A stretch of DNA of 64,000 bases. It comes from Candidatus Moraniibacteriota bacterium. Its GTDB lineage: Bacteria > Patescibacteriota > Minisyncoccia > Moranbacterales > GWC2-37-73. Made by a program: the position numbers and the translations under genes. Of this stretch, positions 1 through 55,117 are shown piece after piece (position 1 is the first letter of the stretch; each line of letters starts with the position of its first letter). The notes beneath the pieces were generated by a model that had not been told where the DNA came from, did no database searches, and worked only from the letters and a program-made list of their open reading frames with translations. The stretch spans positions 160 through 64,159 of the forward strand of contig DAOKZJ010000001.1 of NCBI GenBank assembly GCA_035325685.1. Direction: 5' to 3'.

Positions 1-803
1 CCATCGCCTATTTTGGCATTCGTTACCGCTCCGTCTTGGATTTTGAGCGTCGCCACGCTGCCGTCGGCCAATTTGATTTGGGTTACCGCGCCGTCGGCGA
101 TTTTTCCTTGCGTGATTGCTCCGTCCACAATATGCGCGGTCATTATCGCCCCATCCGCGATTTTTATAGCCGTAATTGCCCCGTCTTGGATTTTGGCCCC
201 GTTTATTCCCAAGTCGGCTATGTCTTGTGCGGTTATGGTTCCATCGGCAATCTTTGCCCCATTTACCGCTCCATCCGCAATTTCAGCGTTACCCACGGCA
301 CCGTCCGCGATAGCCGCACTGCCGACGCTGTCTGTATCCAATTTTGCTGCCGTAATCGCTCCGTCTTGGATTTTGGCACTCGTTACCGCGCCATCGGCAA
401 GCTTTACGCTTACAACCGCCCCATCCGCGATTTTACCGCTCGTTACCGAGCCCTCCAGGATCTGCACCGGCACCAAAACACCCGGTGCTAACTTGGCTGC
501 GGTGATAGCGCCGTCGCGAATATCGCGCGTGCGTATCTTTCCCTTCAAATCCAGCTTCTTGTAACTTATGTTGGCGCTGCTTGAAATGTCCTTGTCTTTT
601 ATTTTGCGCGAGACGACCTGGAAATATTCCTTGCCATCCTCATAAAGCACTTTTACGATGCGGTTACGTGCTTCGGCCTGGAAGAAAACGACTCCGAAAG
701 ACAAAAAAACCACGGCAAAAAATACCGCGGCCCCTTTTGTTGAAAGTCGCTTCTTCCACACACCACACGTTTCTCCCGCAGCAATCCTTGGCTGCTTGCC
801 CAT
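1..803 (-). CDS. Membrane-anchored tandem-repeat protein, partial (C-terminus lies beyond the window start)
   Basis: My own minus-strand translation from the ATG at 803 gives MGKQPRIAAGETCGVWKKRLSTKGAAVFFAVVFLSFGVVFF..., i.e. an N-terminal TM helix. More than 25 tandem 11-residue repeats of the form K-I-x-D-G-A-[IV]-T-x-x-x follow (e.g. SGKIADGAVVSVKLADGAVTSAKIQDGAITAAKL). The 33-nt periodicity is visible in the DNA from 13 to 560. The plus-strand track ORFs 13..564 and 36..491 are the antisense shadow. Confidence 0.6.
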   Translation of the reverse strand, partial: MGKQPRIAAGETCGVWKKRLSTKGAAVFFAVVFLSFGVVFFQAEARNRIVKVLYEDGKEYFQVVSRKIKDKDISSSANISYKKLDLKGKIRTRDIRDGAITAAKLAPGVLVPVQILEGSVTSGKIADGAVVSVKLADGAVTSAKIQDGAITAAKLDTDSVGSAAIADGAVGNAEIADGAVNGAKIADGTITAQDIADLGINGAKIQDGAITAIKIADGAIMTAHIVDGAITQGKIADGAVTQIKLADGSVATLKIQDGAVTNAKIGD

Positions 804-875: not shown

Positions 876-1967
876 TCAAACTCCTTCCTGCCCCAGCTCC
901 TTGATGAGCCGCTCCTGTGTGCGGGTAAGTTTTTTGGGTATGTCCACCACCACTTTCACTATTTGATCTCCCCGCCCGGAGCGCCCCAAGTGAGGAATGC
1001 CCCTGCCCTTGATGCGAAACAGTTCTCCGGATTGCGTTCCGGAAGGTATTTTCATAGTCACATCTCCATCCACTGTTTCCACTTTTATTTTATCTCCGAG
1101 CGCGGCCTGGGAAAAACCGACATGCTCCGTCGACAAAATATCATCACGCTCCCGTACGAAGCGCGCATGAGACGCAACGTGCACTGTCACGTAAAGATCG
1201 CCGCTGCGCGCACCTCTTTCGCCTGCTTCGCCCTGTCCGGCAAGGGAAATCGTTTGTCCATCCGCTATTCCGGCGGGTATTTCAATGCGCACATCTTCTT
1301 CGGTCTGAACCCGGCCGTCGCCACCGCACTCGCCGCATTTTTTTTCATAATATTTCCCGCTTCCATGGCATTCTGGACAAATAACCACCTGCTCGATAGT
1401 TCCCAGAAAACTTTGCACGCTTTTGCGCACCTGTCCAACTCCTCCGCAAGTGGGGCATTTCTGTTCTTTACTGCCCTCTTCGCCACCTGTTCCGGAACAT
1501 TTTTTGCAAACCGACCTTCTGCGCAATTTAACCAGACGTTCGGCACCATGCACCATTTCTTCAAACGTTATTTCCACGTCCACTTGGATATTCCGCCCGC
1601 TACGCGATCGTGCGGAAGCGCGACCGCCGAAACCGCCGCCGAAAATATCTTCGAAAATATCCCCAAAGCCGCCGCCGAAATCAAAACCTCCTGCGCCACC
1701 AAAGCCGCCGAAATCAAACCCGCTAAATCCCGCGCTGCCCGCACCGCCCCCGCCCTGCTCGAACGTGCGTCCAAATTGGTCGTATTGGCTTCTTTTGGTT
1801 TTGTCCGAAAGAACCTGGTAAGCTTCGTTTATTTCCTTGAATTTTTCACTGTCGCCTCCGGCTTTGTCCGGGTGGTATTTGTGTGCAAGCTTGCGGAATG
1901 CCTTTTTTATCTCATCGTCGCTGGCTTCCTTGCCTACACCCAATATGTCATAATAATTCTTTGCCAT
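876..1967 (-). CDS. dnaJ: Chaperone DnaJ (Hsp40)
   Basis: J-domain (YYDILGV...KKAFRKLAHKYHPDK), G/F-rich linker and four CxxCxGxG zinc-finger repeats. Start taken at MAKNYYD (ATG at 1967), not the upstream in-frame Met. Confidence 0.95.
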   Translation of the reverse strand: MAKNYYDILGVGKEASDDEIKKAFRKLAHKYHPDKAGGDSEKFKEINEAYQVLSDKTKRSQYDQFGRTFEQGGGGAGSAGFSGFDFGGFGGAGGFDFGGGFGDIFEDIFGGGFGGRASARSRSGRNIQVDVEITFEEMVHGAERLVKLRRRSVCKKCSGTGGEEGSKEQKCPTCGGVGQVRKSVQSFLGTIEQVVICPECHGSGKYYEKKCGECGGDGRVQTEEDVRIEIPAGIADGQTISLAGQGEAGERGARSGDLYVTVHVASHARFVRERDDILSTEHVGFSQAALGDKIKVETVDGDVTMKIPSGTQSGELFRIKGRGIPHLGRSGRGDQIVKVVVDIPKKLTRTQERLIKELGQEGV

Positions 1968-2059: not shown

Positions 2060-3121
2060 TTAACCTTGAATTATCCTTTCGCGTTCCACCGTTATTCTTT
2101 CCGTTCCGACCAAGCCAAAACGCGCCAAAACTTTAAAAACAGGATCCGCCACCCAGACCACTATTCCCGAAAGAAAAGATCCCAGTGGCAAAATAGTGAG
2201 CAAAAGAAGTGTCGCCAAGAGCAAGGGAAAAGCATTCACCTTCTGATCCGGCATGGTATCCGGAGCCAAATATTCGGCGATACGCTTGTTTATAATCAAG
2301 GTAAATATCTGCGAGACAGACTCGCTCCCTTGCAGCTCCCTTCCAGCCAAAATACCTAGCTGCCTCCTTCCCTCCGCCAAAAGAAGCGCTTGCTGCTGAG
2401 CCATTATCCTTTGGGAAAATTCCTGCGTTTTTTCCCGGGTCTCTCTTTTTGCTACCTGGCGCTGCTCCGGGGTCAATTCCGTGGGAAGATTGTCTTCAAT
2501 CAGCTGTTCCGTTTGCAAATCCATCTCTGTCGGCAAATTTTCCTGCTGGGAACTAAGGATGAATTCATCCACTGTCGCATCTTTTCGAGCCAGGGAAGAA
2601 AATTGCGGACTTACGAAAGCCAGCGCTTTGCCCAGATAATGAGCGCCGCGCGAACCCACTTGGATGCGCGGCATCGCTTTTTCTCCACTACTAGTGGAAA
2701 TGAGTGCGTAATATTGCACTGCCACCATTAGCGCAAGCGCCAAAACCACCAAAGCTTTTCCCGTACGCAAAGATTTGGCCAAATTTATGCGGATATTGAG
2801 ATCCAAATCCGTCCGGATGCGCCTGGCGCCAGCTGCAATAAGAGCTGTGGCCAAAAAGGCCGCCAGCGCCACCTCTTTAGAAGGGGAAAAAAGGAGCGCC
2901 CCGAAACAAACCGCGGCCGCAGCTATTTCCGCAAGCATGAAATCGCGGCACAGAAAGATCGCAAAAGAAAGCAAAAAGAAGACCAACAGAAACCAAAGTG
3001 CCGGCACTGTCCACGTGCTGGCTCCGACGTCAACCGCCGCCCTTTGCACGCTGTGCCAAAATCCCAGCGCCGCAAGCGGCGCAGCCACGGCCAAATAATT
3101 GGCCCATTTATTTTTACGCAT
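2060..3121 (-). CDS. Hypothetical membrane protein
   Basis: 353-aa ORF with N-terminal and C-terminal hydrophobic helices and a central Q/E-rich region. No family recognised. Confidence 0.55.
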   Translation of the reverse strand: MRKNKWANYLAVAAPLAALGFWHSVQRAAVDVGASTWTVPALWFLLVFFLLSFAIFLCRDFMLAEIAAAAVCFGALLFSPSKEVALAAFLATALIAAGARRIRTDLDLNIRINLAKSLRTGKALVVLALALMVAVQYYALISTSSGEKAMPRIQVGSRGAHYLGKALAFVSPQFSSLARKDATVDEFILSSQQENLPTEMDLQTEQLIEDNLPTELTPEQRQVAKRETREKTQEFSQRIMAQQQALLLAEGRRQLGILAGRELQGSESVSQIFTLIINKRIAEYLAPDTMPDQKVNAFPLLLATLLLLTILPLGSFLSGIVVWVADPVFKVLARFGLVGTERITVERERIIQG

Positions 3122-3566
3122 GCTTCCATCTTACCATCGATCCGCCGATAAAAAAACGGGGCAGCCTTTTGGCTACCCCCGGGGAACCGTGGATGCTCAC
3201 TGAGAGCAGATGGGATCCGGGCAATCCCCGCCGTGGATCGGACATCCCTCCTCCTTCCCCCTTCCTCCGCAAAGAGGGGTGCCCGGAGAAGTTTTGGGAC
3301 CATCCACCTTGCACCTCCCCATTTCGGGAGTCACGATTCCAACTCCCACGTCCACCGTTACTTTTTTTTCCCCACTCATACGGCTCCTCCCGCCCAATCT
3401 TCTGGCGCTTCTTTTTGGCGCGGTCTTTGCCGCGCTTAGCTGTCCTTTTCTTATCTCTTTTTTCAATATTTGTCAACACTCTTGCCTAATTTGAGATTTT
3501 CCTTATACTGCCTTAGGATGAATATCCGGCTGTTTTTTAAAATAACCTAAGTGCCAGGAGGAAAAG

Positions 3567-4091
3567 ATGGACCAAAAATCGACACCCAAAAAAGAAAATT
3601 TTTCGGAGTTGGTGGAACATTTCCGCGCCATGTACGAGCAGCTTCGCGATCTCCAAAAAGTTGAACAGCAAAAACATCTTCCTTCGGGAGAAACCACTTT
3701 GGAAGCGCTGGCGCTGCTTTGGAGGAAAACGTTCTCTCCCTTACTGCCCGTTTGCAATATCTGCTTCGTGCTCGAAGAAATCCAGCTCCGTCTCCGCAAA
3801 ATGCATCGCTTCATTTTGTCCTTGAATATCTGTTTGCACTCCGGCAAGGAAAATATTCCCACCCTTTCCCAAATAGAAGCTTCTCTTATCTCTCTTGGAG
3901 AAATAAGAACTCTTACGCGCGAAATCATATCCCTAAGCGACAAGGAACGCATCTTCGATCACACCTGGGAAGAAGCCGTGCGACTACGCCGCACACTCAC
4001 AAGGCTGGAGGCTTCACTTGCAAAGAAGCGCTCCGAAATGCTCAGCACAACAAGCCGGCATGAACTGAGTCACGATTGTCCGACCCAATGA
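3567..4091 (+). CDS. Hypothetical protein (174 aa)
   Basis: Strong SD (caGGAGGaaaag-ATG). First gene of a plus-strand run of small ORFs. No recognisable domain. Confidence 0.55.
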   Translation: MDQKSTPKKENFSELVEHFRAMYEQLRDLQKVEQQKHLPSGETTLEALALLWRKTFSPLLPVCNICFVLEEIQLRLRKMHRFILSLNICLHSGKENIPTLSQIEASLISLGEIRTLTREIISLSDKERIFDHTWEEAVRLRRTLTRLEASLAKKRSEMLSTTSRHELSHDCPTQ

Positions 4092-4108
4092 GTAAGGAGG
4101 GATGCAAA

Positions 4109-4450
4109 ATGGAGGTCATCATTTTCACTGCGGTTCTCTTTTGGGGAGCAAAAATCTGCGGCAAGCTTTACCTTTACGCCTCAACCAAAGCGACCAGCAC
4201 CGCTTGCCATCTCGAAAGATGCTCTTGGCTGCTGGGTGCTGCCAATTTTGCCTTGAGCGTTTTTGTTTTGTGCGCCTTGGGCACGCTTTTCCTTTTCGAA
4301 ATAGGCAAAGCCGCGTTCGGTTCATATCAAGAAAAGACGTGGCTTTTCAATTCCGCTTGGATTTGCGTTTCCTTGCTTTTCTCCCGCGGAATGCTTCCCC
4401 CAAAAACATCAATGCCCCCGGAGGAAAGCAATGACCTTGTCGGAACGTGA
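4109..4450 (+). CDS. Small hypothetical membrane protein (~113 aa)
   Basis: SD AAGGAGGG lies 7 nt before the internal ATG (MEVIIFTAVLF...). Two or three predicted TM helices. Confidence 0.5.
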   Translation: MEVIIFTAVLFWGAKICGKLYLYASTKATSTACHLERCSWLLGAANFALSVFVLCALGTLFLFEIGKAAFGSYQEKTWLFNSAWICVSLLFSRGMLPPKTSMPPEESNDLVGT

Positions 4451-4769
4451 CATAAAGGCCTTGGGACACCTGTTTAGCATCAAGGATCAGCGCCATGCGG
4501 AACTTTTGCTCCAAAGGCGCCTCCGCCGGGACGGTTTTCTTTTCGCGCGCATTGCCGTTTCTTACCCAGGCTTGCGCAAAAAGGCGATTCGGCGCATTTG
4601 CGGCCTTAAGGATTGCCGCGCGGATTCCCTGCGCTTCGTCTTGGAGCGTTCTTTGGCTGAAAGAAAGGAACAATGCAAGCTTGCCAAACTCTTGCTGCGC
4701 CTTGACTCGCGCAAAGATACCGCAGAGTTTGTGCGGCGCTGCTTGGTCCAAAACAAAGCCGGATCGTAA
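4431..4769 (+). CDS. Hypothetical protein (112 aa)
   Basis: SD GGAGGaaagca-ATG. Overlaps the upstream gene by 20 nt. A terminator follows. Confidence 0.5.
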   Translation: MTLSERDIKALGHLFSIKDQRHAELLLQRRLRRDGFLFARIAVSYPGLRKKAIRRICGLKDCRADSLRFVLERSLAERKEQCKLAKLLLRLDSRKDTAEFVRRCLVQNKAGS

Positions 4770-4794
4770 TTATCGATCCGGCTTTTCTTTTTTA
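4756..4794 (+). terminator. Rho-independent terminator
   Basis: Hairpin gccggatcg/cgatccggc followed by a T-run (ttttcttttttatt). Confidence 0.7.
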
Positions 4795-5204
4795 TTGCTT
4801 TCTTTTTCGCTCAGACGTCTTTTTTGCCCGATTTTTTTGGGCAAGTGCGGCCAAGATAAGCAAAAAAACAATGAGTCTGGTCTTTCCGACCTTGAGTCCT
4901 TCCGAGCTGAAGCAACCCATCCTTTGTACATCCTTCTCTAATAAAAAATCCGAAACCCTGGGTATTTCTACTACTCTGTATCTGACACCCTTCACGATCC
5001 TCTCCTCGCCTCCGGCTCCCTCTTTTTTCTTCAAAGAATCCCTCATGGCCTCCTCCTTTTTGACCAATCGAAACAGTTGTCAATATACTTTTTTGATTTT
5101 CCATGATAAATCAAAAAAACCTCTCCGTCAACTCTCTTGACTGCTTTTGGTTTTGACGCTTCAATTGTCAAAGAGTCCTTTTATAAAAATCCAAGGAGGT
5201 CCCT

Positions 5205-5621
5205 ATGGAATATGAAAATTTATACAACCGCATTCCCCAGCGCCAGGCGGCCGCAGAAAATGAGGCGTCTATCGTAATTGAGCTGCAAAAAATGCTTCTG
5301 GATCTCTGGGATGTTTTTTTCTTTTCCCAGGAAATACTCGTTCTTCCCCAAATAGCCAGCGGAACCAAAAGACACATCGTCGCTATCCAGGAAAAAATCA
5401 TGACTCACATTATGAACTTCGGTTACGCCTTAAGCTCCGCTCCTTTGCCGCAACTGGAAAAGGAAGAAGACTTGCTTTGTACCAAGATAGACTCGGTCAT
5501 CGATGAATTGAGTTTCTTTCTGGATGAATTGGAGGCTGCCTGGATGCTATTGGAACCGGATAGGCCCCTGCGAAGATTGCCCAGCGGCAAAATACAATTT
5601 CACAAAACCAGCGAGTGTTGA
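5205..5621 (+). CDS. Hypothetical protein (138 aa)
   Basis: SD AAGGAGGtcccT-ATG. No recognisable domain. Confidence 0.5.
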   Translation: MEYENLYNRIPQRQAAAENEASIVIELQKMLLDLWDVFFFSQEILVLPQIASGTKRHIVAIQEKIMTHIMNFGYALSSAPLPQLEKEEDLLCTKIDSVIDELSFFLDELEAAWMLLEPDRPLRRLPSGKIQFHKTSEC

Positions 5622-5630
5622 AAAAAAGGG

Positions 5631-5909
5631 ATGGATATAAGAGAAGCTCTCGCTCAAGTCTTAGATATCCTGTGTACAAAAATTGGGATATATTCTCCGC
5701 TAAAAAAAGCCCTCAACCTGGAATTTATCAATCGCTTATCTGTCCTGATAATGCTTTTGGTGGACGGCCGGTTTTCTTTACGCCTGCTTTTGATTTCCGA
5801 CTGCCTGCGCCGCAACAAGCATGAATGTGAACTCAGCCGCAAAGCGATCCGCTTTTTGCTTCCGACATACCGCTTACCGACATACCGTACGAGCTGGCCA
5901 GACGAGTAA
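5631..5909 (+). CDS. Hypothetical protein (92 aa)
   Basis: ORF 10 nt after the previous stop; only a weak SD (aaaaaaaggg-ATG). Called mainly from its co-orientation and spacing. Confidence 0.35.
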   Translation: MDIREALAQVLDILCTKIGIYSPLKKALNLEFINRLSVLIMLLVDGRFSLRLLLISDCLRRNKHECELSRKAIRFLLPTYRLPTYRTSWPDE

Positions 5910-6061
5910 AGTCCAGGCATGTTTTTAACCGCAAAAAGAAAGCTTTCGTACCTCGCGCGCTTCCCAGCGCCTACGCCCTTCGCCGAATGTTTGACCCTCC
6001 TAAATTATGAATTACTGCCCCCCAGCCATCCGCTGCCGGGGCTTTTTCTTTTTCCCCAACG

Positions 6062-6108
6062 CCCCACCCAAAAGCGAAGCTTTTGGGTAATGGCTCAAAT
6101 AAGGCAAA
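6062..6108. repeat. 47-bp direct repeat, copy 1, containing a GCGAAGC mini-hairpin
   Basis: ccccacccaaaagcgaagcttttgggtaatggctcaaataaggcaaa occurs again at 6765..6811. It carries a perfect hairpin cccaaaagc-GAA-gcttttggg; a third, partial hairpin is at 6112-6140. Confidence 0.85.
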
Positions 6109-6151
6109 TTCCTAAAGCGAAGCTTTTGGAGAAGCTTTAGAGCAAAAAATA

Positions 6152-6190
6152 AAGGCCGGATTATAAATTTAATCCGGCCTTTTCTTTTTT
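6152..6190. terminator. Bidirectional rho-independent terminator
   Basis: aaggccggatt-ataaa-ttaatccggcctt with an A-run before and a T-run after. Could terminate the plus-strand small-ORF run and the minus-strand gene 6621..6247. Confidence 0.75.
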
Positions 6191-6246
6191 TGCATGAGCA
6201 CCTGCTTCAATTAATTTCTGGAAATCATTTTGAAAATAAATCCCCG

Positions 6247-6621
6247 CTAGCTCCTCCTCTCCTCAGTCCGATAATTCTCCCAAAAGACATCCATAAAAGA
6301 AATAGCCTTTAGCAATTTTTCCGTCAAGCAAGAGGCATTTGCCATTACCGCCCCATTTATCCTGAAGCGCCTTTTATTCATGGAAACTCCCTGTCCATAC
6401 TCAGATAGAAAATAATCCTCTCCGTCCGGACCCTTGAAAATGAGGTTTATTTCGGAAGGACGGCCCAGATATTTTTGAGCCAGCCAAATGCGCAAAAAAT
6501 GACAATAAGCTTCGCGCAATGAACGCATGGGATTATTTGCATTCAACTTGAAATGGACTTCCAAAGCGAGCTTGCGATCCGCCAAAATAGCACAGCAATA
6601 ACTTCCGTGGCCGATTCCCAT
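6247..6621 (-). CDS. Hypothetical protein (124 aa), possibly a small nuclease-like protein
   Basis: Strong SD (aagaaGGGGGGAtttATG). Only a faint resemblance to small PD-(D/E)xK/YraN-like proteins (EINLIFKGPDGEDYFLSEYG). The gene lies between the two 47-bp direct repeats. Confidence 0.45.
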   Translation of the reverse strand: MGIGHGSYCCAILADRKLALEVHFKLNANNPMRSLREAYCHFLRIWLAQKYLGRPSEINLIFKGPDGEDYFLSEYGQGVSMNKRRFRINGAVMANASCLTEKLLKAISFMDVFWENYRTEERRS

Positions 6622-6764
6622 AAATCCCCCCTTCTTATAAAGTGAAGTGCTCTTATTTTAAAAAACTTCGTCTTAAATCCAAATATTCCTATCCCATCCT
6701 ACACCCGAAAAAAACATATGCAAAGTATCCCTCCTCCCAAAAAAATCCCCATTAATCCCAAAAA

Positions 6765-6811
6765 CCCCACCCAAAAGCGAAGCTTTTGGGTAATGGCTCA
6801 AATAAGGCAAA
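6765..6811. repeat. 47-bp direct repeat, copy 2
   Basis: Identical to 6062..6108. Confidence 0.85.
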
Positions 6812-6894
6812 AAACTCTTGGGGAAAGGGCAAAAAAGAACCTTTGCGCCATACTCCAAGGGGGTTGTTTTTTAAGTCATCCGGAAACATTCACT

Positions 6895-6925
6895 TAAAGA
6901 GCGGGGTTCAATCCCCGCTCTTTTT
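6895..6925. terminator. Hairpin / terminator at the dnaK 3' end
   Basis: agagcgggg-ttcaat-ccccgctct with a T-run on the plus side and an A-run before. It lies directly after the dnaK stop. Confidence 0.5.
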
Positions 6926-6930
6926 TCAAA

Positions 6931-8832
6931 CTATTTTTTATCGCCGTTTTCTACTTCCGCGTCTTTCACCTCACCTTCGTCTTTTTTCTCTTCGCTGCCT
7001 TCAGCGCCGGCTTGTGTGCCTTCGGCGGCTTGCGTGGCGGCATAAAGCTTCTCGCCGATCTTTTGCGCCGCTTGGGAAAGCACTTCGGTCTTGGCCTTGA
7101 TCTGCTCCAGGTCGTCGCCGTTTTTCACCTTGTTGAGCTCCTCGATCGCCTCCTTAACGGGCTTGGCTTCTTCTTCACTCACTTTGTCGCCCGCCTCCTT
7201 AAGCGCTTTTTCCGTGGTGTACACCAACGTGTCGGCCAAGTTGCGCGCTTCCACCAGTTCCTTTTTGCGCTTGTCCTCTTCGGCATGCATCTCGGCATCT
7301 TTTTTCATCTTTTCGATTTCTTCCTTGGAAAGACCGCTGGAGGCTTCAATCTTGATGGATTGCGACTTGCCGGTCGCCTTATCCTTGGCGGTCACGCTCA
7401 ATATCCCGTTTGCGTCGATATCGAAAGTTACTTCGACTTGAGGAACACCGCGAGGAGCGGGAGGAATCCCGTCAAGAATGAACCGTCCCAATGTCTTGTT
7501 CCCGCTCGCCAATTCGCGCTCGCCTTGCAGGACATGGATCTCCACGCTCGGCTGGTTGTCAGCTGCGGTTGAAAATACCTGCGACTTGGCTGTCGGTACG
7601 GTCGTGTTCCTTTCGATAAGCGGAGTGGAAATTCCGCCCATCGTTTCTATTCCGAGTGTCAACGGAGTTACGTCCAACAGTAACACGTCCTTGACGCTTC
7701 CCTCCAAGACTCCGCCCTGGATTGCGGCCCCCAGGGCCACCACTTCGTCCGGATTCACGCTGATATTGGGTTTTTTGCCAAAAAACTTCTCCACTGTCGA
7801 AAGCACTAACGGCATCCTCGTCATTCCACCGACCATCACCACCTCGTTGATATCGGCAGCGCTCAGTTTGGCATCAGCCAAGGCTTTCTTTACCGGCTCC
7901 AAGGTTTTTTCCACCAAATCTCCTACCAATTCTTCCAGTTTGGCTCGCGTGAGCTTCATAACCAGGTGCCTGGGACCCGAAGCATCGCTCGTGATGAACG
8001 GTTGGTTTATTTCCGTTTCTTGCGCGGTCGAAAGTTCGATTTTGGCTTTTTCCGCAGCTTCCTTGATGCGCTGCAGTGCCAGCGGATCCTTGGAAAGATC
8101 AATTCCTTCTGTTTTTTTGAATTCGTCGATGATCCAAGTGATGATCTTTTGGTCAAAGTCATCCCCACCCAAGTGCGTGTCGCCGTTGGTCGACTTTACC
8201 TCCACTGTGTCTCCACCCACTTCCAAGATGGAAATATCGAACGTGCCGCCTCCCAAGTCATATACGGCTATTTTCTCATCGTTTTTCTTGTCGAATCCAT
8301 AAGCCAAAGCAGCCGCCGTCGGCTCATTGATGATGCGGCGCACGTTCAGGCCGGCGATTTCGCCCGCTTCTTTGGTTGCCTTTCTTTGCGAGTCGTCAAA
8401 ATAAGCCGGCACGGTAATGACCGCATCCGTGATCGTCTCGCCCAATTTCTCCTCCGCATCCGCTTTGAGTTTTTGGAGAATCATCGCGGATATCTCCTGC
8501 GGCGTATAATCTTTGTCGCCCATCTGCACCTTGACCGTTTCGCCGGCATGCACAATTTTGTACGGCATGAGCTTTTCGTCACGCTGTACTTCGCTGTCAT
8601 GATAAGCCCGTCCGATCAAGCGCTTGATGGAAAACAAGGTATTGGTCGGATTGGTCACCGCTTGGCGCTTAGCCAAAAGACCCACCAGCCTCTCGTTAGT
8701 TTTAGAAATAGCTACCATTGAAGGTGTGGTACGCGCCCCTTCTTTGTTCTCGATTATCTCGGGTTTTCCTCCCATCACGACGGCCATCGCCGAATTGGTG
8801 GTGCCCAGGTCGATTCCCAAAATCTTGCCCAT
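6931..8832 (-). CDS. dnaK: Chaperone DnaK (Hsp70)
   Basis: [14 protein letters not shown]..., DLGGGTFD, the [11 protein letters not shown] motif, and a 633-aa length with a C-terminal lid domain. Confidence 0.97.
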
Positions 8833-9044
8833 ATTTTTTGTGAAAAATTCTTAACTTATTAATTATTGCTTTTTTTCCGGGTCATGTGCCCGGCGCGAAA
8901 TTCCCAAAAAAAGAACTTCGCGTCCAACCATGACCATTGACAATTCTCATCTTCCATGCCAGACTTACCGACGGATTGGACAGGTCAACGACCTGCCTTA
9001 GCCCTCGGCATTTTTCCTCCTTTTGCCGGGGGCGCTTTTTTTAT

Positions 9045-9073
9045 TTGACTTTTTTAATTTTATATGATATAAT
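9045..9073 (+). promoter_or_regulatory. Consensus sigma-70 promoter
   Basis: TTGACT, a 17-nt spacer, then TATAAT, about 40 nt upstream of the small ORF at 9117. Confidence 0.6.
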
Positions 9074-9116
9074 AGAAAGAACATCCGTTATTTTACATCA
9101 TCCAAAGGAGGAGATC

Positions 9117-9320
9117 ATGAGTCGCCACATCATCAAGGCCGCCAGTCCGGAAGCGGCCAAAATCCGCCCCATCGACATGTTTACCTTCGCCGCTCCGCTC
9201 ATCCTAAAGCTGGAAAAAAATCCAGCAGACCGAATCTTGAGCGGGGTGTTTGCCGTAAATCCCACTCACGCAACCGAAGAATTCACCCCTTGCGCTTGGT
9301 TTATTGCCAGGCGAAGATAA
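9117..9320 (+). CDS. Small hypothetical protein (67 aa)
   Basis: SD AGGAGGagatc-ATG and a consensus promoter upstream, with a strong terminator downstream. Sequence MSRHIIKAASPEAAKIRPIDMF... Confidence 0.5.
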   Translation: MSRHIIKAASPEAAKIRPIDMFTFAAPLILKLEKNPADRILSGVFAVNPTHATEEFTPCAWFIARRR

Positions 9321-9335
9321 TCTTCTTTTGCTCTG

Positions 9336-9371
9336 CGGGACCGCACATTGCTTGCGGTCCTTTTTTATTTT
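9336..9371 (+). terminator. Rho-independent terminator
   Basis: ggaccgca-cattgct-tgcggtcc followed by ttttttatttt. Confidence 0.75.
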
Positions 9372-9449
9372 CCCTTCAAAAAAACTCGGGACGTGCTTTG
9401 CCCGCTTGGCCGTCCCTTGCAAAAAGAGACGACCTGCCGGAAAAACACC

Positions 9450-9869
9450 TTACTTGGCCTTGATGGCGATTTTCTTGGGCTTCACTTCCTCGGCCTTAGG
9501 CAAAGATATTTTAAGGATTCCCTTTTCATACGTCGCCTCGGCCTGCTCGCCCTTGACCTGCATCGGCAAGATTACCGAACGCGAGAAGCCGCCCATCCGA
9601 ATCTCTTTGCGATAATAATCTTCGCGGCGCACCTCGCTCTTCCCCTCGGCTTTTCCGGAAATAGTAAGTACATCATTTTCAATCGATATATCCACCTTTT
9701 CCGGATCTATGCCGGAAAGCGCCGTTTCCACGATCACGTTGTCCCTGTCCTGATAAACATCAATTGCCGGAATAAAATCCGCGCCGTCCAATCCGGAGAG
9801 TTCGTCAAACATCCGGTCGAAATCCCTCCACATGAATCCTGGCGTATAGCGCATAATTCCCCTGTTCAT
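9450..9869 (-). CDS. Small heat-shock protein, Hsp20/alpha-crystallin family
   Basis: Alpha-crystallin domain (IDVYQDRDNVIVETALSGIDPEKVDISIENDVLTISGK...). SD gaaaGGGGGtgaaaaat-ATG at the internal Met (MNRGIM). Confidence 0.9.
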   Translation of the reverse strand: MNRGIMRYTPGFMWRDFDRMFDELSGLDGADFIPAIDVYQDRDNVIVETALSGIDPEKVDISIENDVLTISGKAEGKSEVRREDYYRKEIRMGGFSRSVILPMQVKGEQAEATYEKGILKISLPKAEEVKPKKIAIKAK

Positions 9870-9926
9870 ATTTTTCACCCCCTTTCTGTTTATTATTTCA
9901 ACTCTTGCTTTCATCCTCGCGATACC

Positions 9927-10517
9927 CTATTCCACCACCACCCGCGCCGGGCGGATGACGCGCTCCCCCATTTTGTAGCCTTTCTGCACGATTTTCTTTA
10001 TGCGATTGAGGTATTTCTTTTCCCCTTGGCAATGGGTGCATTCCTTATCTTCGACTGCTTCATGGAGAGCCGGATCAAAACTATCCCCTTCCTTGGCGGC
10101 TATCTCCTCCAACCCGCCGCTTTCCAGTACCTGTTCCAACTGTTTTTGGATGTGCATGATGCCTACCAACCAACCGCTCTCCTTTTGATCCTCCGGCACA
10201 TGCTCGGTCGCGCTGCGGAAATTGTCCAGCACCGGAATAAGCTCCAAGACCAGATTCTGCGTGGCATATTTGACCAAATCACGCTGCGCGTCTCCCTGAA
10301 GACGACGGTAATTTTCAAACTCCGCCTGACATCTGCGCCATCCGTCCAGATATTCATCCGCCTGTTTCCTGAGGGAAGCAATCGTTTCTTCTTGCTCCAC
10401 CACTATCTGTTCCTCCACATCCTTGATATCTTTTCTCATTTTGCTATCCTCAGCCGCAGATTCCTTCTCGCTTTTTTTATGCTTTTCGGTCATGATTTTT
10501 TGGTTAAGATTTTTCAA
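9927..10517 (-). CDS. grpE: Nucleotide exchange factor GrpE
   Basis: GrpE signature (LRKQADEYLDGWRRCQAEFENYRRL...VLDNF...SFDPALHEAV). The start is either the TTG at 10517 or the ATG at 10493. Confidence 0.9.
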   Translation of the reverse strand: MKNLNQKIMTEKHKKSEKESAAEDSKMRKDIKDVEEQIVVEQEETIASLRKQADEYLDGWRRCQAEFENYRRLQGDAQRDLVKYATQNLVLELIPVLDNFRSATEHVPEDQKESGWLVGIMHIQKQLEQVLESGGLEEIAAKEGDSFDPALHEAVEDKECTHCQGEKKYLNRIKKIVQKGYKMGERVIRPARVVVE

Positions 10518-10532
10518 ATCCGTGTTGCAATT

Positions 10533-11291
10533 TCAAAATCCCAGTACTCTTGCGGATTCAGTGGCAATTATTATTACCGCCGAACCGCTCAGCATCTTCT
10601 TTACGTATTCGATAAGCGATTTGTTCTTGTCGTAGCGCATGCGCTTGGGTCCGATAAGCGCCAAAATGCCTTTTTCCCCTTGTTTGGTGCGATACGGCGA
10701 CACGATCATCGAACAATTGGAGATGTCTGTGATGGGGTTTTCTTTGCCAATAAAGATGCGCGTCTCGCCGTCTTTCAATTCAGCCATGAGCAAATCGAAT
10801 TTCTCATCCACATAATCCAGCACTTCCGCCAAACGGCACACCTCGTCCAGTTCGCGAAATTCCGGCTGCTCCATCAGCTCGCGCATGCCGAACTCGGAAA
10901 ACTCGTCTTTGTCCAAAATGCCGCTGATTGCCAGATTGCCGCTCAGATGCGACATGAGCTTGGCGGTCGTCTTGGTTAGGCGCGTATGCTGCGCTTTGAG
11001 TTTCAAAAATTCCTTTTGCAATTTGAGCTGCTCCTCGCGCGAAAGCTCCTTGTCAGCCATCACTTTCTCCACGAAAAAGCGATACCCTTTGTCGGTCGGA
11101 ATGCGTCCGGCGCTGGTGTGCGGCTGATGCAAAAAACCTTTCTCTTCCAAGGCCGCCATATCGTTGCGGATCGTAGCCGGACTTACCTGGAAATCATATT
11201 TGTCCACCAGCACTTTGGAACCGACCGGCTCGGCGGTCTGCGTGTATTCCTCAATGATGGCCGCCAATATTTTTTCTTGTCTTGTATTCAT
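10533..11291 (-). CDS. hrcA: Heat-inducible transcription repressor HrcA
   Basis: N-terminal winged HTH (QEKILAAIIEEYTQTAEPVGSKVL...SPATIRNDMAALEEKGFL). Positioned upstream of grpE, with a CIRCE element upstream. Confidence 0.9.
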   Translation of the reverse strand: MNTRQEKILAAIIEEYTQTAEPVGSKVLVDKYDFQVSPATIRNDMAALEEKGFLHQPHTSAGRIPTDKGYRFFVEKVMADKELSREEQLKLQKEFLKLKAQHTRLTKTTAKLMSHLSGNLAISGILDKDEFSEFGMRELMEQPEFRELDEVCRLAEVLDYVDEKFDLLMAELKDGETRIFIGKENPITDISNCSMIVSPYRTKQGEKGILALIGPKRMRYDKNKSLIEYVKKMLSGSAVIIIATESARVLGF

Positions 11292-11355
11292 ATAAAACCC
11301 CGCTGTCCCGAATGAATGCACTGATTACGCTGATGAATATATCTTATCTCATAGG

Positions 11356-11382
11356 TTAGCAGTCGTCAAGTCCGAGTGCTAA
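11356..11382. promoter_or_regulatory. CIRCE-like element upstream of hrcA
   Basis: TTAGCAGTC-N9-GAGTGCTAA. A TTGACG -35-like hexamer lies within the spacer and a TAAGAT -10 follows on the minus strand. Confidence 0.75.
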
Positions 11383-11943: not shown

Positions 11944-12011
11944 GTTCTCTCTCCTTTTTTCAATGAATTGAGATGCAGCGCCGCAAAGCTCCCCCTTTCC
12001 GCCCTCCTGGC

Positions 12012-12146
12012 TTAATTACCCCTCTTCTCCTGTTCGCTACGGGGATCCTCCGCTTCCTTGGGACAATCGCCCATAATGGAAACAGGGATGCTTCTTTTTG
12101 GATCACCCGCCGTCCTGCGCATTTCCTCGCAAATATCTTCTGTCAT
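12012..12146 (-). CDS. Possible micro-ORF (44 aa)
   Basis: My own translation: MTEDICEEMRRTAGDPKRSIPVSIMGDCPKEAEDPRSEQEKRGN, preceded by aaaggacagg. Not in the ORF track (under 60 aa). Confidence 0.25.
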   Translation of the reverse strand: MTEDICEEMRRTAGDPKRSIPVSIMGDCPKEAEDPRSEQEKRGN

Positions 12147-12207
12147 GACCTGTCCTTTCCCGCGTTTTTAAAAAGCGCGTATTTTGTTTTCAAAAAACCA
12201 CCTTTTC

Positions 12208-12513
12208 CTATATATTGAAATCCTCTTTTTTCCCTATTGCTTGCACATTGTCGCTTTTTTCAATCCCCCGTTCCGGCACCGGATCATATCCGCCTTCATT
12301 CCAGGGATGGCAACGCAAAACCCTCTTGGCCGCAAGCCAACCGCCGCGCACCACGCCGAATCTCCCGATAGCCGCATAGGCATATTCGCTGCAGCTAGGA
12401 TAATGCCGGCAAACGCGCAGCGGCAAAATCCTGCCCAAAAGCCCGTGGTCCAACGAAAGCGTCTTTTGGTAAGCCTTTAGCAATAAAAGTACGGCCTTGC
12501 TCATATAAGGCAT
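12208..12513 (-). CDS. yidD: Membrane protein insertion efficiency factor YidD
   Basis: YidD (haemolytic-domain) signature: [46 protein letters not shown]. Confidence 0.85.
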
Positions 12514-12536
12514 ATCCTACGTATTTTGACCATTTT

Positions 12537-12565
12537 TGTCAATAAGACTTTTTGGCTGTATAATG
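12537..12565 (+). promoter_or_regulatory. Sigma-70-like promoter for corA
   Basis: TTGTCA, a 17-nt spacer, then TATAAT, about 50 nt upstream of the corA ATG. Confidence 0.5.
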
Positions 12566-12614
12566 AAAGCTGAGCTTTCTTTAAATTACGCAAGATATTC
12601 TAAAACAAAAACTC

Positions 12615-13523
12615 ATGAAGACCGTCTCCTTCAAAAACACTACCTGGGTCGATTTTGCCAACCCGAGCGCAGACGACATTCTTTATCTGCAGGAAAATTT
12701 TGACATCCATCCGATCGCTATCGAGGAATTTGTAACGCCCACCTTCCGCCCCAAGGCTACCCAATATGACAACTGCCTTTTTCTTACCGTCCACATCCCG
12801 CTTTACGACACGGTTTCGCGCACCACTTATCCCGGAGAACTGGATATCGTACTCACCCGCGACCACCTGATCACCGGACATACCGATGAAATCTACCAAC
12901 TGGAAGAATTTTTCCAATCCCTGGAAGAAAGCGAAGGCAAAAGGCGCCTTTATATGGAAAACTCTCCAGCGCACCTGCTCTACCATTTACTCAACCTGCT
13001 CTTGGAATCATGCTTTCCGCGCCTCGACCACGTGCACCGCAAACTTACGGATATCGAGGACAAGGTTTTTCATGGCAAAGAAAAAGAAATGGTATACGAG
13101 ATCAGCGTGGTCAAACGCGATATCCTCAATTTCCGTCGCACGCTCAAGCCGCAACGCTCCGTACTGGAATCGCTCGCCCAAAAAGACACGCCATTTATTT
13201 CCGAAGACCTGCGGCCTTATTTTCAAGACCTTATCGGCACCAATATCCGCCTCTGGAATGCCCTGGAAAGCAACAAGGAAACGATCGAATCCATGGAAGA
13301 AACCAACAACTCCCTACTTTCCAACAAACTGGACCATACCATGAAGGTGCTCACCATCTTCTCGGCCATCATGATGCCCATGACCGTCTATTCCAACATC
13401 CTGGCTATGAGCGCGGACATTCCGTTTGGCAAAAACCCCAACGGCTTCTGGATCCATATGGGAATCATGATTTTCATTTCCCTGTTCACAATTTCGGTTT
13501 TTAAGGGCAAGAAGTGGCTGTAA
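12615..13523 (+). CDS. corA: CorA-family Mg2+/Co2+ transporter
   Basis: ~300 aa, with a soluble N-terminal domain and two C-terminal TM helices (MPMTVYSNILAMSAD...GIMIFISLF), as in CorA. The canonical GMN loop appears degenerate. Confidence 0.8.
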   Translation: MKTVSFKNTTWVDFANPSADDILYLQENFDIHPIAIEEFVTPTFRPKATQYDNCLFLTVHIPLYDTVSRTTYPGELDIVLTRDHLITGHTDEIYQLEEFFQSLEESEGKRRLYMENSPAHLLYHLLNLLLESCFPRLDHVHRKLTDIEDKVFHGKEKEMVYEISVVKRDILNFRRTLKPQRSVLESLAQKDTPFISEDLRPYFQDLIGTNIRLWNALESNKETIESMEETNNSLLSNKLDHTMKVLTIFSAIMMPMTVYSNILAMSADIPFGKNPNGFWIHMGIMIFISLFTISVFKGKKWL

Positions 13524-54649: not shown

Positions 54650-55117
54650 GGGGAAAATGAGTATGTTGCCTGCCCAAGCAAACATGTAAGCCGGATTCTG
54701 TCACTTCCGCAAAACAGAAGCGGACAACTATTTATCTAGCTCTGGCGTTTCCGCCAGAATCAAGCGGCACTCCGCCGACGCAAAAGCGTCGCCGGCACGG
54801 CCTTGCACCACGCAGGGTTTGCCATCTTCCGCCGTCGCCGGCGGAGAACTGCCGTAGCCCACATCCTTTGCTAATCAGCTGATGAAGCAAAGTCGTGTAC
54901 CTCGGCAAACTTTTCACCTTTTGCCAGCGCTGCGCACTGGCTAGTATAGTCTCTGTGGCACTTTCCCTTCCACGGCGTCACCGCTGTGGCGGTGGGCGTT
55001 ACCCACTGCGCCTAATCCCGACAAGTCGGAATTGGTGTCCGGACTTTCCTCTCTCCGCCTAAGCGGACAGCAGCTGTCCCGCCTGCTACGACAGGCAACA
55101 CACTCATCTTTTCCCGG
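54650..55117 (-). ncRNA. rnpB: RNase P RNA (bacterial-type)
   Basis: The minus strand has GGCGGAGAGAGGAAAGTCCGGACACC (P4 5' strand) and ACAGAATCCGGCTTAC (P4 3' strand / CR-V). An extended P1 pairs 5' GAGUGUGUUGCCUG with 3' CAGGCAACAUACUC. Length is about 450 nt; the ends are approximate. Confidence 0.8.

Follow-up and report, generated by a model that had tools for sequence, protein, structure and literature searches.

Genomic islets at integration hotspots between core genes have been described in enterobacteria and pseudomonads. A comparable block interrupts the chaperone genes of a Candidatus Moranbacteria metagenome-assembled genome, from which a 64-kb stretch of DNA, referred to here as the window, was analyzed. 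On its minus strand the gene order is hrcA-grpE-hsp20-dnaK, a 3.8-kb gap (3122-6930), mem353 (a gene for a membrane protein of 353 aa), and dnaJ. The gap is the islet under study, and it holds eight small open reading frames (ORFs), five on the plus strand and three on the minus strand. Like the hotspot islets, it is characterized by fixed flanks (dnaK on one side, mem353 and dnaJ on the other), unrelated cargo across genomes, empty sites in some relatives, a mild compositional deviation, and orphan genes. Unlike them, it is very small (3.8 kb), lacks an integrase, a tRNA gene, and direct repeats at its borders, carries no recognizable defense or mobility genes, and resides in a reduced-genome bacterium of the candidate phyla radiation (CPR), in whose genomes clusters of orphan genes are common. 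The 3.8 kb are probably a lineage-specific accessory islet of eight small, mostly orphan genes that form about five self-contained units at a plastic dnaK spacer. According to this proposal, the spacer between dnaK and the mem353-dnaJ pair would gain and lose unrelated DNA in Moranbacteria, and the cargo genes would be young or foreign and dispensable. No description of Moranbacteria dnaK loci or of hotspots in Patescibacteria was found in the literature.

The HrcA-CIRCE heat-shock operon hrcA-grpE-dnaK-dnaJ (CIRCE, controlling inverted repeat of chaperone expression) is of the Bacillus type. The window keeps this order as hrcA-grpE-(hsp20)-dnaK...dnaJ, with a CIRCE upstream of hrcA. It differs in that the run is broken after dnaK and in that dnaJ has a CIRCE of its own and is preceded by a membrane-protein gene that is conserved in Patescibacteria. 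The islet is framed by the following genes:

10533-11321, minus strand: hrcA, the first gene of the chaperone run
6931-8832, minus strand: dnaK, the last gene of hrcA-grpE-hsp20-dnaK, with a Pfam HSP70 match; conserved flank
2060-3121, minus strand: mem353; conserved flank of the insert on the dnaJ side
876-1967, minus strand: dnaJ, 363 aa from the ATG at 1967, with Pfam DnaJ, DnaJ_C, and DnaJ_CXXCXGXG matches

The locus is annotated at NCBI (proteins HMN18967-HMN18976, locus tags PKA31_000xx), and near-identical contigs are contained in ENA and Logan assemblies. An earlier reading of the DNA alone (the original prediction) had described dnaK and dnaJ as normally adjacent genes that lie 3.8 kb apart here. 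The 3.8-kb insert exists, but it is bordered by mem353 rather than by dnaJ, and the distance from dnaK to dnaJ is about 4.96 kb. Adjacency does not hold as a norm either, as 77 loci of the phylum show dnaK-dnaJ gaps of about 0 to 6.9 kb and the two genes are often nonadjacent.

The turnover of DNA at this site is illustrated by scans anchored on DnaK, which covered 80 genome loci and 80 metagenome loci with DnaK identities of up to 87%. Nothing like the gap was found in these approximately 160 related dnaK loci by blastn, tblastx, tblastn, or phmmer, and the site is empty or differently filled elsewhere. The comparison is aided by mem353, a protein of about 350 aa without a Pfam family whose gene directly precedes dnaJ in Moranbacteria and other Patescibacteria. 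Homologs stand directly upstream of dnaJ in L010, L097, L091/L092, L113, and L046 and beside dnaK in L143; a 350-aa protein that L011 encodes between dnaK and dnaJ can be aligned with mem353 over its entire length, though weakly. A scan of genome contigs with mem353 gave no match. From its conserved position, mem353 looks like an uncharacterized partner of the chaperone operon. The intervals between dnaK and mem353, with the coordinates of the mem353 homologs, are as follows:

L011: 69 nt, no content; homolog at 11995-13047
L091/L092: 98 nt, no content; homolog at 6725-7759 of L091
L143: about 220 nt, no content; homolog at 12010-13035
L046: about 560 nt; homolog at 10222-11382
L097: 1.1 kb, a 154-aa ORF and a homolog of a 96-aa ORF; mem353 homolog at 8137-9195
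Window: 3.8 kb, the islet
L113: 3.8 kb, unrelated ORFs, part of them on the opposite strand; homolog at 9399-10451
L010: 5.5 kb, trypsin-like peptidase, PP2C phosphatase, YdjM, and hypothetical proteins; homolog at 12402-13472

The empty site is thus represented by L011, L091/L092, and L143, where dnaK, the membrane-protein gene, and dnaJ follow one another without an insert. The 96-aa ORF of L097, which may be DUF3467-like, recurs downstream of dnaK in L013-L016, where the cargo is diverse and no dnaJ is present within 10 kb. In L087 (85% DnaK identity), a dnaK with 53% guanine and cytosine (GC) is followed by at least 4.2 kb of cargo at 39% GC, and in L090, which is devoid of mem353, dnaK is followed by an HNH-like ORF. 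The different or empty content of the orthologous site in relatives argues that the block is an insert at a turnover site and not a conserved housekeeping cluster. The term accessory insert, as used in the original prediction, is therefore retained: the comparison with relatives that it had called for showed a variable insert, and no conserved syntenic housekeeping block was found. In a further relative, L009 (83% DnaK identity), the gene directly after dnaK (11944-12576) has a PF05635 match below the family cut-off. PF05635 is a 23S rRNA-intervening-sequence/four-helix-bundle family that includes accessory proteins of diversity-generating retroelements; the L009 contig ends soon past the gene.

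The second CIRCE offers a possible explanation for how the insert is tolerated. A search for the inverted repeat TTAGCACTC-N9-GAGTGCTAA yields two CIRCE in the window, at 11356-11382 (upstream of hrcA) and at 2022-2048 (upstream of dnaJ). The latter has one mismatch, lies 55-81 nt upstream of the dnaJ ATG inside the 92-nt mem353-dnaJ spacer, overlaps a promoter-like site (2028-2000), and would not be expected by chance. Among loci with at least 81% DnaK identity, dnaJ-proximal CIRCE occur in the window and in three relatives, all four of them with additional DNA between dnaK and dnaJ:

L010: 13594-13620
L090: 5809-5835
L097: 9368-9394

A dnaJ-proximal CIRCE is absent in the contiguous loci L011, L091/L092, and L143. 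We infer that dnaJ forms a unit of its own under HrcA control in this genome. In the proposed arrangement, hrcA-grpE-hsp20-dnaK and dnaJ would each be transcribed from a separate CIRCE promoter, and this uncoupling of the chaperone genes would explain why the insert is tolerated. Transcription of the islet would be kept away from the chaperone genes by the terminators at 6896-6925 and 3179-3158.

The eight ORFs of the islet and their most important properties are:

3197-3379, minus strand: o60m, 60 aa, five cysteines (PKA31_00020); GGAGG ribosome-binding site; GC-rich stretch
3567-4091, plus strand: o174, 174 aa, all-helical (PKA31_00025); AGGAGG ribosome-binding site; orphan
4109-4450, plus strand: o113, 113 aa, hydrophobic, candidate small membrane protein; absent from the NCBI annotation
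4431-4769, plus strand: o112, 112 aa, very basic (pI 10.7) (PKA31_00030); GGAGG ribosome-binding site
4792-5046, minus strand: o84m, 84 aa, basic, C-terminal hydrophobic anchor (PKA31_00035); GGAGG ribosome-binding site
5205-5621, plus strand: o138, 138 aa, acidic (pI 4.8), helical (PKA31_00040); AGGAGG ribosome-binding site
5631-5909, plus strand: o92, 92 aa, basic (pI 9.5), central hydrophobic segment; starts 9 nt past o138
6247-6621, minus strand: o124m, 124 aa (PKA31_00050); GGGGGG ribosome-binding site 4-5 nt before the ATG; orphan

The five plus-strand ORFs (174, 113, 112, 138, and 92 aa) lie where the original prediction had placed them, and its remark that most have a strong Shine-Dalgarno sequence is borne out by four of the five: GGAGG is found 5-8 nt ahead of the ATG in o174, o113, o112, and o138, while o92 is without a good ribosome-binding site (weak). 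Also correct is the overlap of two ORFs, namely of o113 and o112 by 20 nt. An alternative o113 start (ATG 4088) would give a protein of 120 aa and overlaps the o174 stop codon as ATGA. The multispanning membrane protein of the prediction corresponds to o113, which is hydrophobic (grand average of hydropathy 0.61) and harbors a strong 34-residue hydrophobic stretch at residues 38-71. The statement that the intervening DNA runs on the strand opposite to dnaK has to be corrected, as o60m, o84m, and o124m run on the dnaK strand, have ribosome-binding sites, and are annotated by NCBI.

That these ORFs are real genes is argued on the basis of ribosome-binding-site statistics together with one real homolog, that of o138. 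In 2000 first-order Markov simulations of the gap, GGAGG with an ATG 4-10 nt later that opens an ORF of 80 aa or more had a mean count of 0.03 (simulation maximum 2), compared to five in the actual sequence, which is an excess of about 150-fold. ATG-initiated ORFs of at least 110 aa number eight in the gap versus 0.95 expected from such simulations. Nine GGAGG motifs occur on the plus strand, and four of them precede, by 5-8 nt, the ATG of an ORF with 112 aa or more. The translation signals are thus far beyond chance, and the islet ORFs are probably real genes. Three further ORFs (4871-5140, 89 aa; 5919-6140, 73 aa; 6718-6897, 59 aa) were dropped because they lack a ribosome-binding site; the coding model, applied to the 89-aa and 73-aa ORFs, scores both of them negative. 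Nor are the islet ORFs paralogous to one another, since no pair exceeds z = 3 except for the 73-aa and 59-aa ORFs (5919-6140 and 6718-6897), whose mutual similarity stems from a DNA repeat.

The signals that surround the genes are:

3158-3179, minus strand: terminator-like hairpin between o60m and mem353, nine pairs (seven GC), T7 tail
3482-3519, plus strand: promoter-like sites upstream of o174, consensus match 9/12, weak
4755-4785: terminator-like hairpin between the convergent o112 and o84m, 12 pairs (seven GC)
5060-5089, plus strand, and 5131-5103, minus strand: overlapping divergent promoter-like sites between o84m and o138, consensus match 10/12 each
6053-6108: 56-nt direct repeat, copy 1
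6151-6182: bidirectional intrinsic-terminator-like hairpin common to the o138-o92 operon (plus) and o124m (minus), 13 pairs, T-runs on both strands
6756-6811: 56-nt direct repeat, copy 2
6896-6925, plus strand: GC-rich hairpin (stem 6903-6915) with a T-run that abuts the dnaK stop codon, from terminator scan and folding

The hairpins at 4755-4785 and 6151-6182 correspond to the two terminators that had been read from the DNA, one of them bidirectional, and were recovered by the terminator scan. The layout suggests about five transcription units. On the minus strand, o60m ends at the terminator 3179-3158. The second unit comprises o174-o113-o112 on the plus strand, which end at 4785, and converges with the third unit, o84m, on the hairpin 4755-4785. 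The plus-strand pair o138-o92 ends at 6182, and o124m, the fifth unit, runs toward it on the minus strand and shares the hairpin 6151-6182. Plus-strand islet transcripts would be halted by the hairpin at 6896-6925 before entering dnaK in antisense direction. A 30-nt imperfect palindrome (5089-5118, TTTTTTGATTT...AAATCAAAAAA) lies precisely at the overlap of the divergent promoters predicted for o84m and o138 and is a candidate operator. The 14-nt sequence GTTTTTTAAAATAA is found at 3532-3545 and 6653-6666, where it precedes the start codons of o174 and o124m by 21 and 31 nt, respectively. Both copies have the same orientation relative to their genes and may serve as a common -10-like element of o174 and o124m.

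The two copies of the 56-nt repeat occur nowhere else in the window. The repeat has sharp bounds, 47 nt of exact identity, three mismatches, and a perfect 10-bp palindrome with a GAA loop. Its copies bracket o124m and the bidirectional terminator, and each of them is followed by an intrinsic terminator on the plus strand. A weaker third hairpin is found at 6111-6129, and the Logan contigs break at the repeats. A diversity-generating retroelement was considered and rejected: the repeat measures just 56 nt, its flanks are unrelated, with mismatches that are not adenine-specific, and the block contains no reverse-transcriptase ORF.

Concerning the origin of the genes, searches against Pfam, NCBIfam, PHROGs, and PADLOC returned no match at E ≤ 1 beyond noise, in agreement with the original prediction that no protein resembles a known family. 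In PHROGs no islet match falls below an E-value of 0.06, and PADLOC-DB gave zero matches for the seven ORFs tested (o84m was left out). Neither DNA nor protein matches to the islet were found in 50,697 phage genomes (INPHARED, blastn and tblastn) and 72,556 plasmids. IMG/VR was likewise negative: five of the eight ORFs were searched at the protein level, in five scans, and the 56-nt repeat in one DNA-pattern scan. Among 5.8 billion proteins o174 and o124m match only themselves, and the 90%-identity clusters of the islet proteins have one or two members each, all from this species. The only islet protein with a detected homolog is o138. An exhaustive HMMER search yielded one convincing relative, P0017 (135 aa, 25% identity over the full length, E = 3.4e-5), which shares the C-terminal S-(A)-E-C of o138; the other two matches are repetitive junk. 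P0017 is encoded away from dnaK on a contig with 40% GC (L086), surrounded by small helical hypothetical proteins. Its gene is monocistronic and has its own terminator, followed by a convergent unrelated ORF, and no o92-like gene or other islet protein was found on L086. Together, o138 and P0017 form a new two-member protein family. A metagenome scan with the o138 alignment gave no match.

Structure-based searches were equally unproductive. Sequence searches of the PDB were negative apart from a sub-threshold resemblance of o124m to SUMO. AlphaFold2 models calculated without an alignment are of low confidence (predicted local distance difference test 50 for o124m and 64 for o174, which shows five helices). 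In Foldseek searches of the PDB, o174 matched generic helical bundles without significance (BAG domains at E = 0.3), and nothing was found for o124m, the model with the score of 50. The BAG-domain matches were not taken as a link to Hsp70. In o124m, residues 5-41 and 77-114 form two collinear stretches that are similar to SUMO-1/2 and 35 residues apart (e.g., VHFKL..L.EAYC and QGVSM..RFR..G...DVF), and phmmer against SUMO chains of the PDB gave E-values of 0.006-0.3. An assignment of o124m as a ubiquitin/SUMO-like β-grasp protein was rejected: after removal of residues 42-76 Pfam ubiquitin reaches only E = 0.28, Rad60-SLD gives nothing, and neither does Foldseek.

The composition of the block deviates mildly from that of the host. 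Its GC content is 0.468 compared to 0.494 for the window, which is a small shift although it places the gap in the lowest 0.7% of 3.8-kb windows; the dip is restricted to the half at 4770-6930. Coding models were trained on the housekeeping genes of the window. In a periodic Markov model, the islet ORFs reach -0.15 to +0.10 bits per codon, compared to a mean of 0.25 for long genes and to 0.005-0.36 for the window's remaining small ORFs with positive scores, and they thus score at or below the bottom of the latter range. A codon-usage model gives 0.01-0.24 for the islet versus 0.25-0.48 for control host genes. The plus-strand soluble ORFs share codon usage with one another in a leave-one-out test. 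Both checks that had been proposed for composition and coding signal came out mixed: a GC difference and low host-model scores are present, but the shift is small and operon 1 is typical in GC; the coding signal is weak under the host-trained model, but the ribosome-binding-site statistics and the one homolog favor genes.

Differences between strains are informative within limits, as only near-identical strains (at least 99.6% identity) were at hand and the counts are too small for a formal test or an estimate of the ratio of non-synonymous to synonymous substitution rates. L001 carries an 11-nt deletion (5543-5553) flanked by TGG microhomology, which truncates o138 at residue 112 and removes residues that are conserved with P0017. 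In another assembly, the L002 contig ends exactly at 5553; together with the L001 deletion, this suggests two haplotypes in the population. The 99.6% identical L005 has 21 substitutions, five of which are located in o92 and are all non-synonymous; a Poisson estimate from the background rate is about 0.8, so that o92 is a hotspot. The remaining changes include two non-synonymous ones in o112, one synonymous in o84m, three non-synonymous and one synonymous in mem353, and two synonymous in dnaJ. In addition, o92 contains a 15-nt tandem duplication (5858-5887, LPTYRLPTYR). The variants suggest dispensable, fast-evolving cargo.

Several observations weigh against the reading as an accessory islet with insulated units. 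No integrase, tRNA gene, flanking direct repeat, or attachment site was found, nor any similarity to mobile elements; neither an integrase-like ORF nor a Pfam integrase match occurs in the block, the 64-kb window contains no detectable tRNA gene, and the only direct repeat pair (6053, 6756) is internal to the block and not at its borders. The deep homology search covered three of the eight proteins (o174, o124m, and o138), and the other five were compared to curated libraries and scanned in close relatives. Operon 1 (3567-4769) has a host-typical GC content of 0.504, so it is not clearly foreign. All islet promoters are candidate sites by consensus match alone. The link between CIRCE and insert is based on about four versus three related genomes and could be a trait of the clade, and distant genomes with large dnaK-dnaJ gaps lack a second CIRCE.

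The main rival explanation holds that the block is decaying or nonfunctional DNA, in which the ORFs are remnants or young, accidental, and unselected, and the region drifts. The near-zero scores of the host-trained models fit this explanation, as does the fact that no other stretch of the window is as long as 3122-4791 without containing an ORF of positive score. Furthermore, all seven strain substitutions in o92 and o112 are non-synonymous, one population carries the frameshift allele of o138 that lacks homolog-conserved residues, the AlphaFold2 confidence is low, and six or seven of the eight ORFs are without any relative. Drift is, however, at odds with the roughly 150-fold excess of ribosome-binding site, ATG, and long-ORF combinations, and with the preservation of coupled starts (the ATGA and the 20-nt overlaps) and matched terminators. 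It also fits poorly with o174, o113, and o138, which are identical between strains that differ elsewhere, with the membership of o138 in a real, if tiny, protein family, and with the codon usage shared by the plus-strand ORFs. On balance, decay is considered unlikely. An RNA-based explanation, in which the repeat-plus-terminator units 6053-6190 and 6756-6925 are two paralogous small RNAs or cis-regulatory hairpins acting on their neighbors, draws on the position of each repeat copy 43-85 nt upstream of a plus-strand intrinsic terminator, on folds well below shuffled controls (z = -6.3 and -4.7), and on the absence of gene calls on these stretches. However, the palindrome and the terminators themselves account for the z-scores, and Rfam gives no match above noise; the matches in the gap are below the gathering thresholds and lie on terminators. 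As this explanation would account for less than 10% of the block and for none of the ORFs with ribosome-binding sites, it is highly improbable.

The original prediction had likened the layout to phage-derived, toxin-antitoxin, or anti-defense islands, and a module of this kind, or one of antiphage defense, could be built from the o138/o92 pair or from a membrane-acting o174, o113, and o112. As in type II toxin-antitoxin systems, an acidic protein (o138) is followed after 9 nt by a basic one (o92), both are small (92-138 aa), and a palindrome accompanies a putative promoter, here between divergent promoter-like sites. Small co-directional pairs with a 9-nt spacing or an overlap, the fast evolution of o92, and defense-flavored cargo at the same site in relatives (an SDH-type ClpP-like protease in L014, DUF6602 in L016, the HNH-like ORF in L090) point in the same direction. 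Unlike in type II systems, no toxin or antitoxin domain is present, and o92, which lacks a good ribosome-binding site, has gathered non-synonymous changes. The solitary o138 homolog, monocistronic with its own terminator and partnerless on its contig, weakens the toxin-antitoxin reading of o138/o92 further. Similarly, the islet resembles phage morons and cryptic-prophage cassettes in its short autonomous units of promoter, ribosome-binding site, ORF, and terminator, its alternating strands, and its small membrane proteins, but differs from them in that it has no similarity to phage families or genomes and no structural, replication, or integration genes nearby. With PHROGs, PADLOC, Pfam, NCBIfam, phage, plasmid, and IMG/VR searches giving no positive support, and neither an integrase nor an attachment site found, the phage, toxin-antitoxin, and anti-defense labels are unsupported, and such a module is decidedly unlikely.

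The accessory islet remains the preferred reading, for which a more specific content can be proposed only tentatively. The protein properties (o113 is hydrophobic, o84m tail-anchored, and o112 very basic; o138 and o174 are both helical, the former also acidic; o60m is rich in cysteine) give clues to small membrane-associated and regulatory proteins that a mobile element might have left behind and that are now dispensable, a possible though rather doubtful proposal. A far more speculative combination, very unlikely as a whole, would make the dnaK-proximal spacers of this Moranbacteria clade a dedicated landing site for small autonomous cassettes and the islet an undescribed CPR-specific small-protein system, e.g., a membrane-acting phage-exclusion or host-interaction module. 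In this combination, o138 would be the founder of a new family and o124m a divergent SUMO/ubiquitin-like β-grasp protein with a 35-residue insertion, and dnaJ, cut off by the split, would have had its regulation rescued by the gain of the second CIRCE.

Other parts of the window show features of their own. The hsp20-dnaK spacer (8833-9449, 617 nt) carries a further orphan cassette on the opposite strand, with a 67-aa ORF (9117-9320, plus strand, PKA31_00060), a terminator (9337-9361), and the best promoter match of the region (9045-9073, 11/12). This spacer measures about 100-136 nt in L011 and L013 and 469-1197 nt in L047, L093, and L090. Downstream of dnaJ, the 3′ part of a 1288-aa repeat-rich gene (1-800, minus strand) contains seven strain differences that cluster in 180 nt (261-441); a long shadow ORF opposite this gene (13-564, plus strand) is noncoding. 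A bacterial class A RNase P RNA (54671-55089, minus strand, 177 bits) is the sole Rfam match above threshold in the window.

No new mechanism is revealed by the islet, and the observations of general use are the plastic dnaK-mem353 interval, the second CIRCE, and the conserved mem353-dnaJ pair. The interval between dnaK and the membrane-protein gene could be used for harvesting accessory genes from Moranbacteria metagenomes. If the accessory reading is true, the locus would be a small, clean example of a reduced CPR genome that tolerates accessory DNA inside a core stress operon, with a fixed insertion site, cargo turnover between relatives, and a downstream chaperone gene that has its own HrcA operator.

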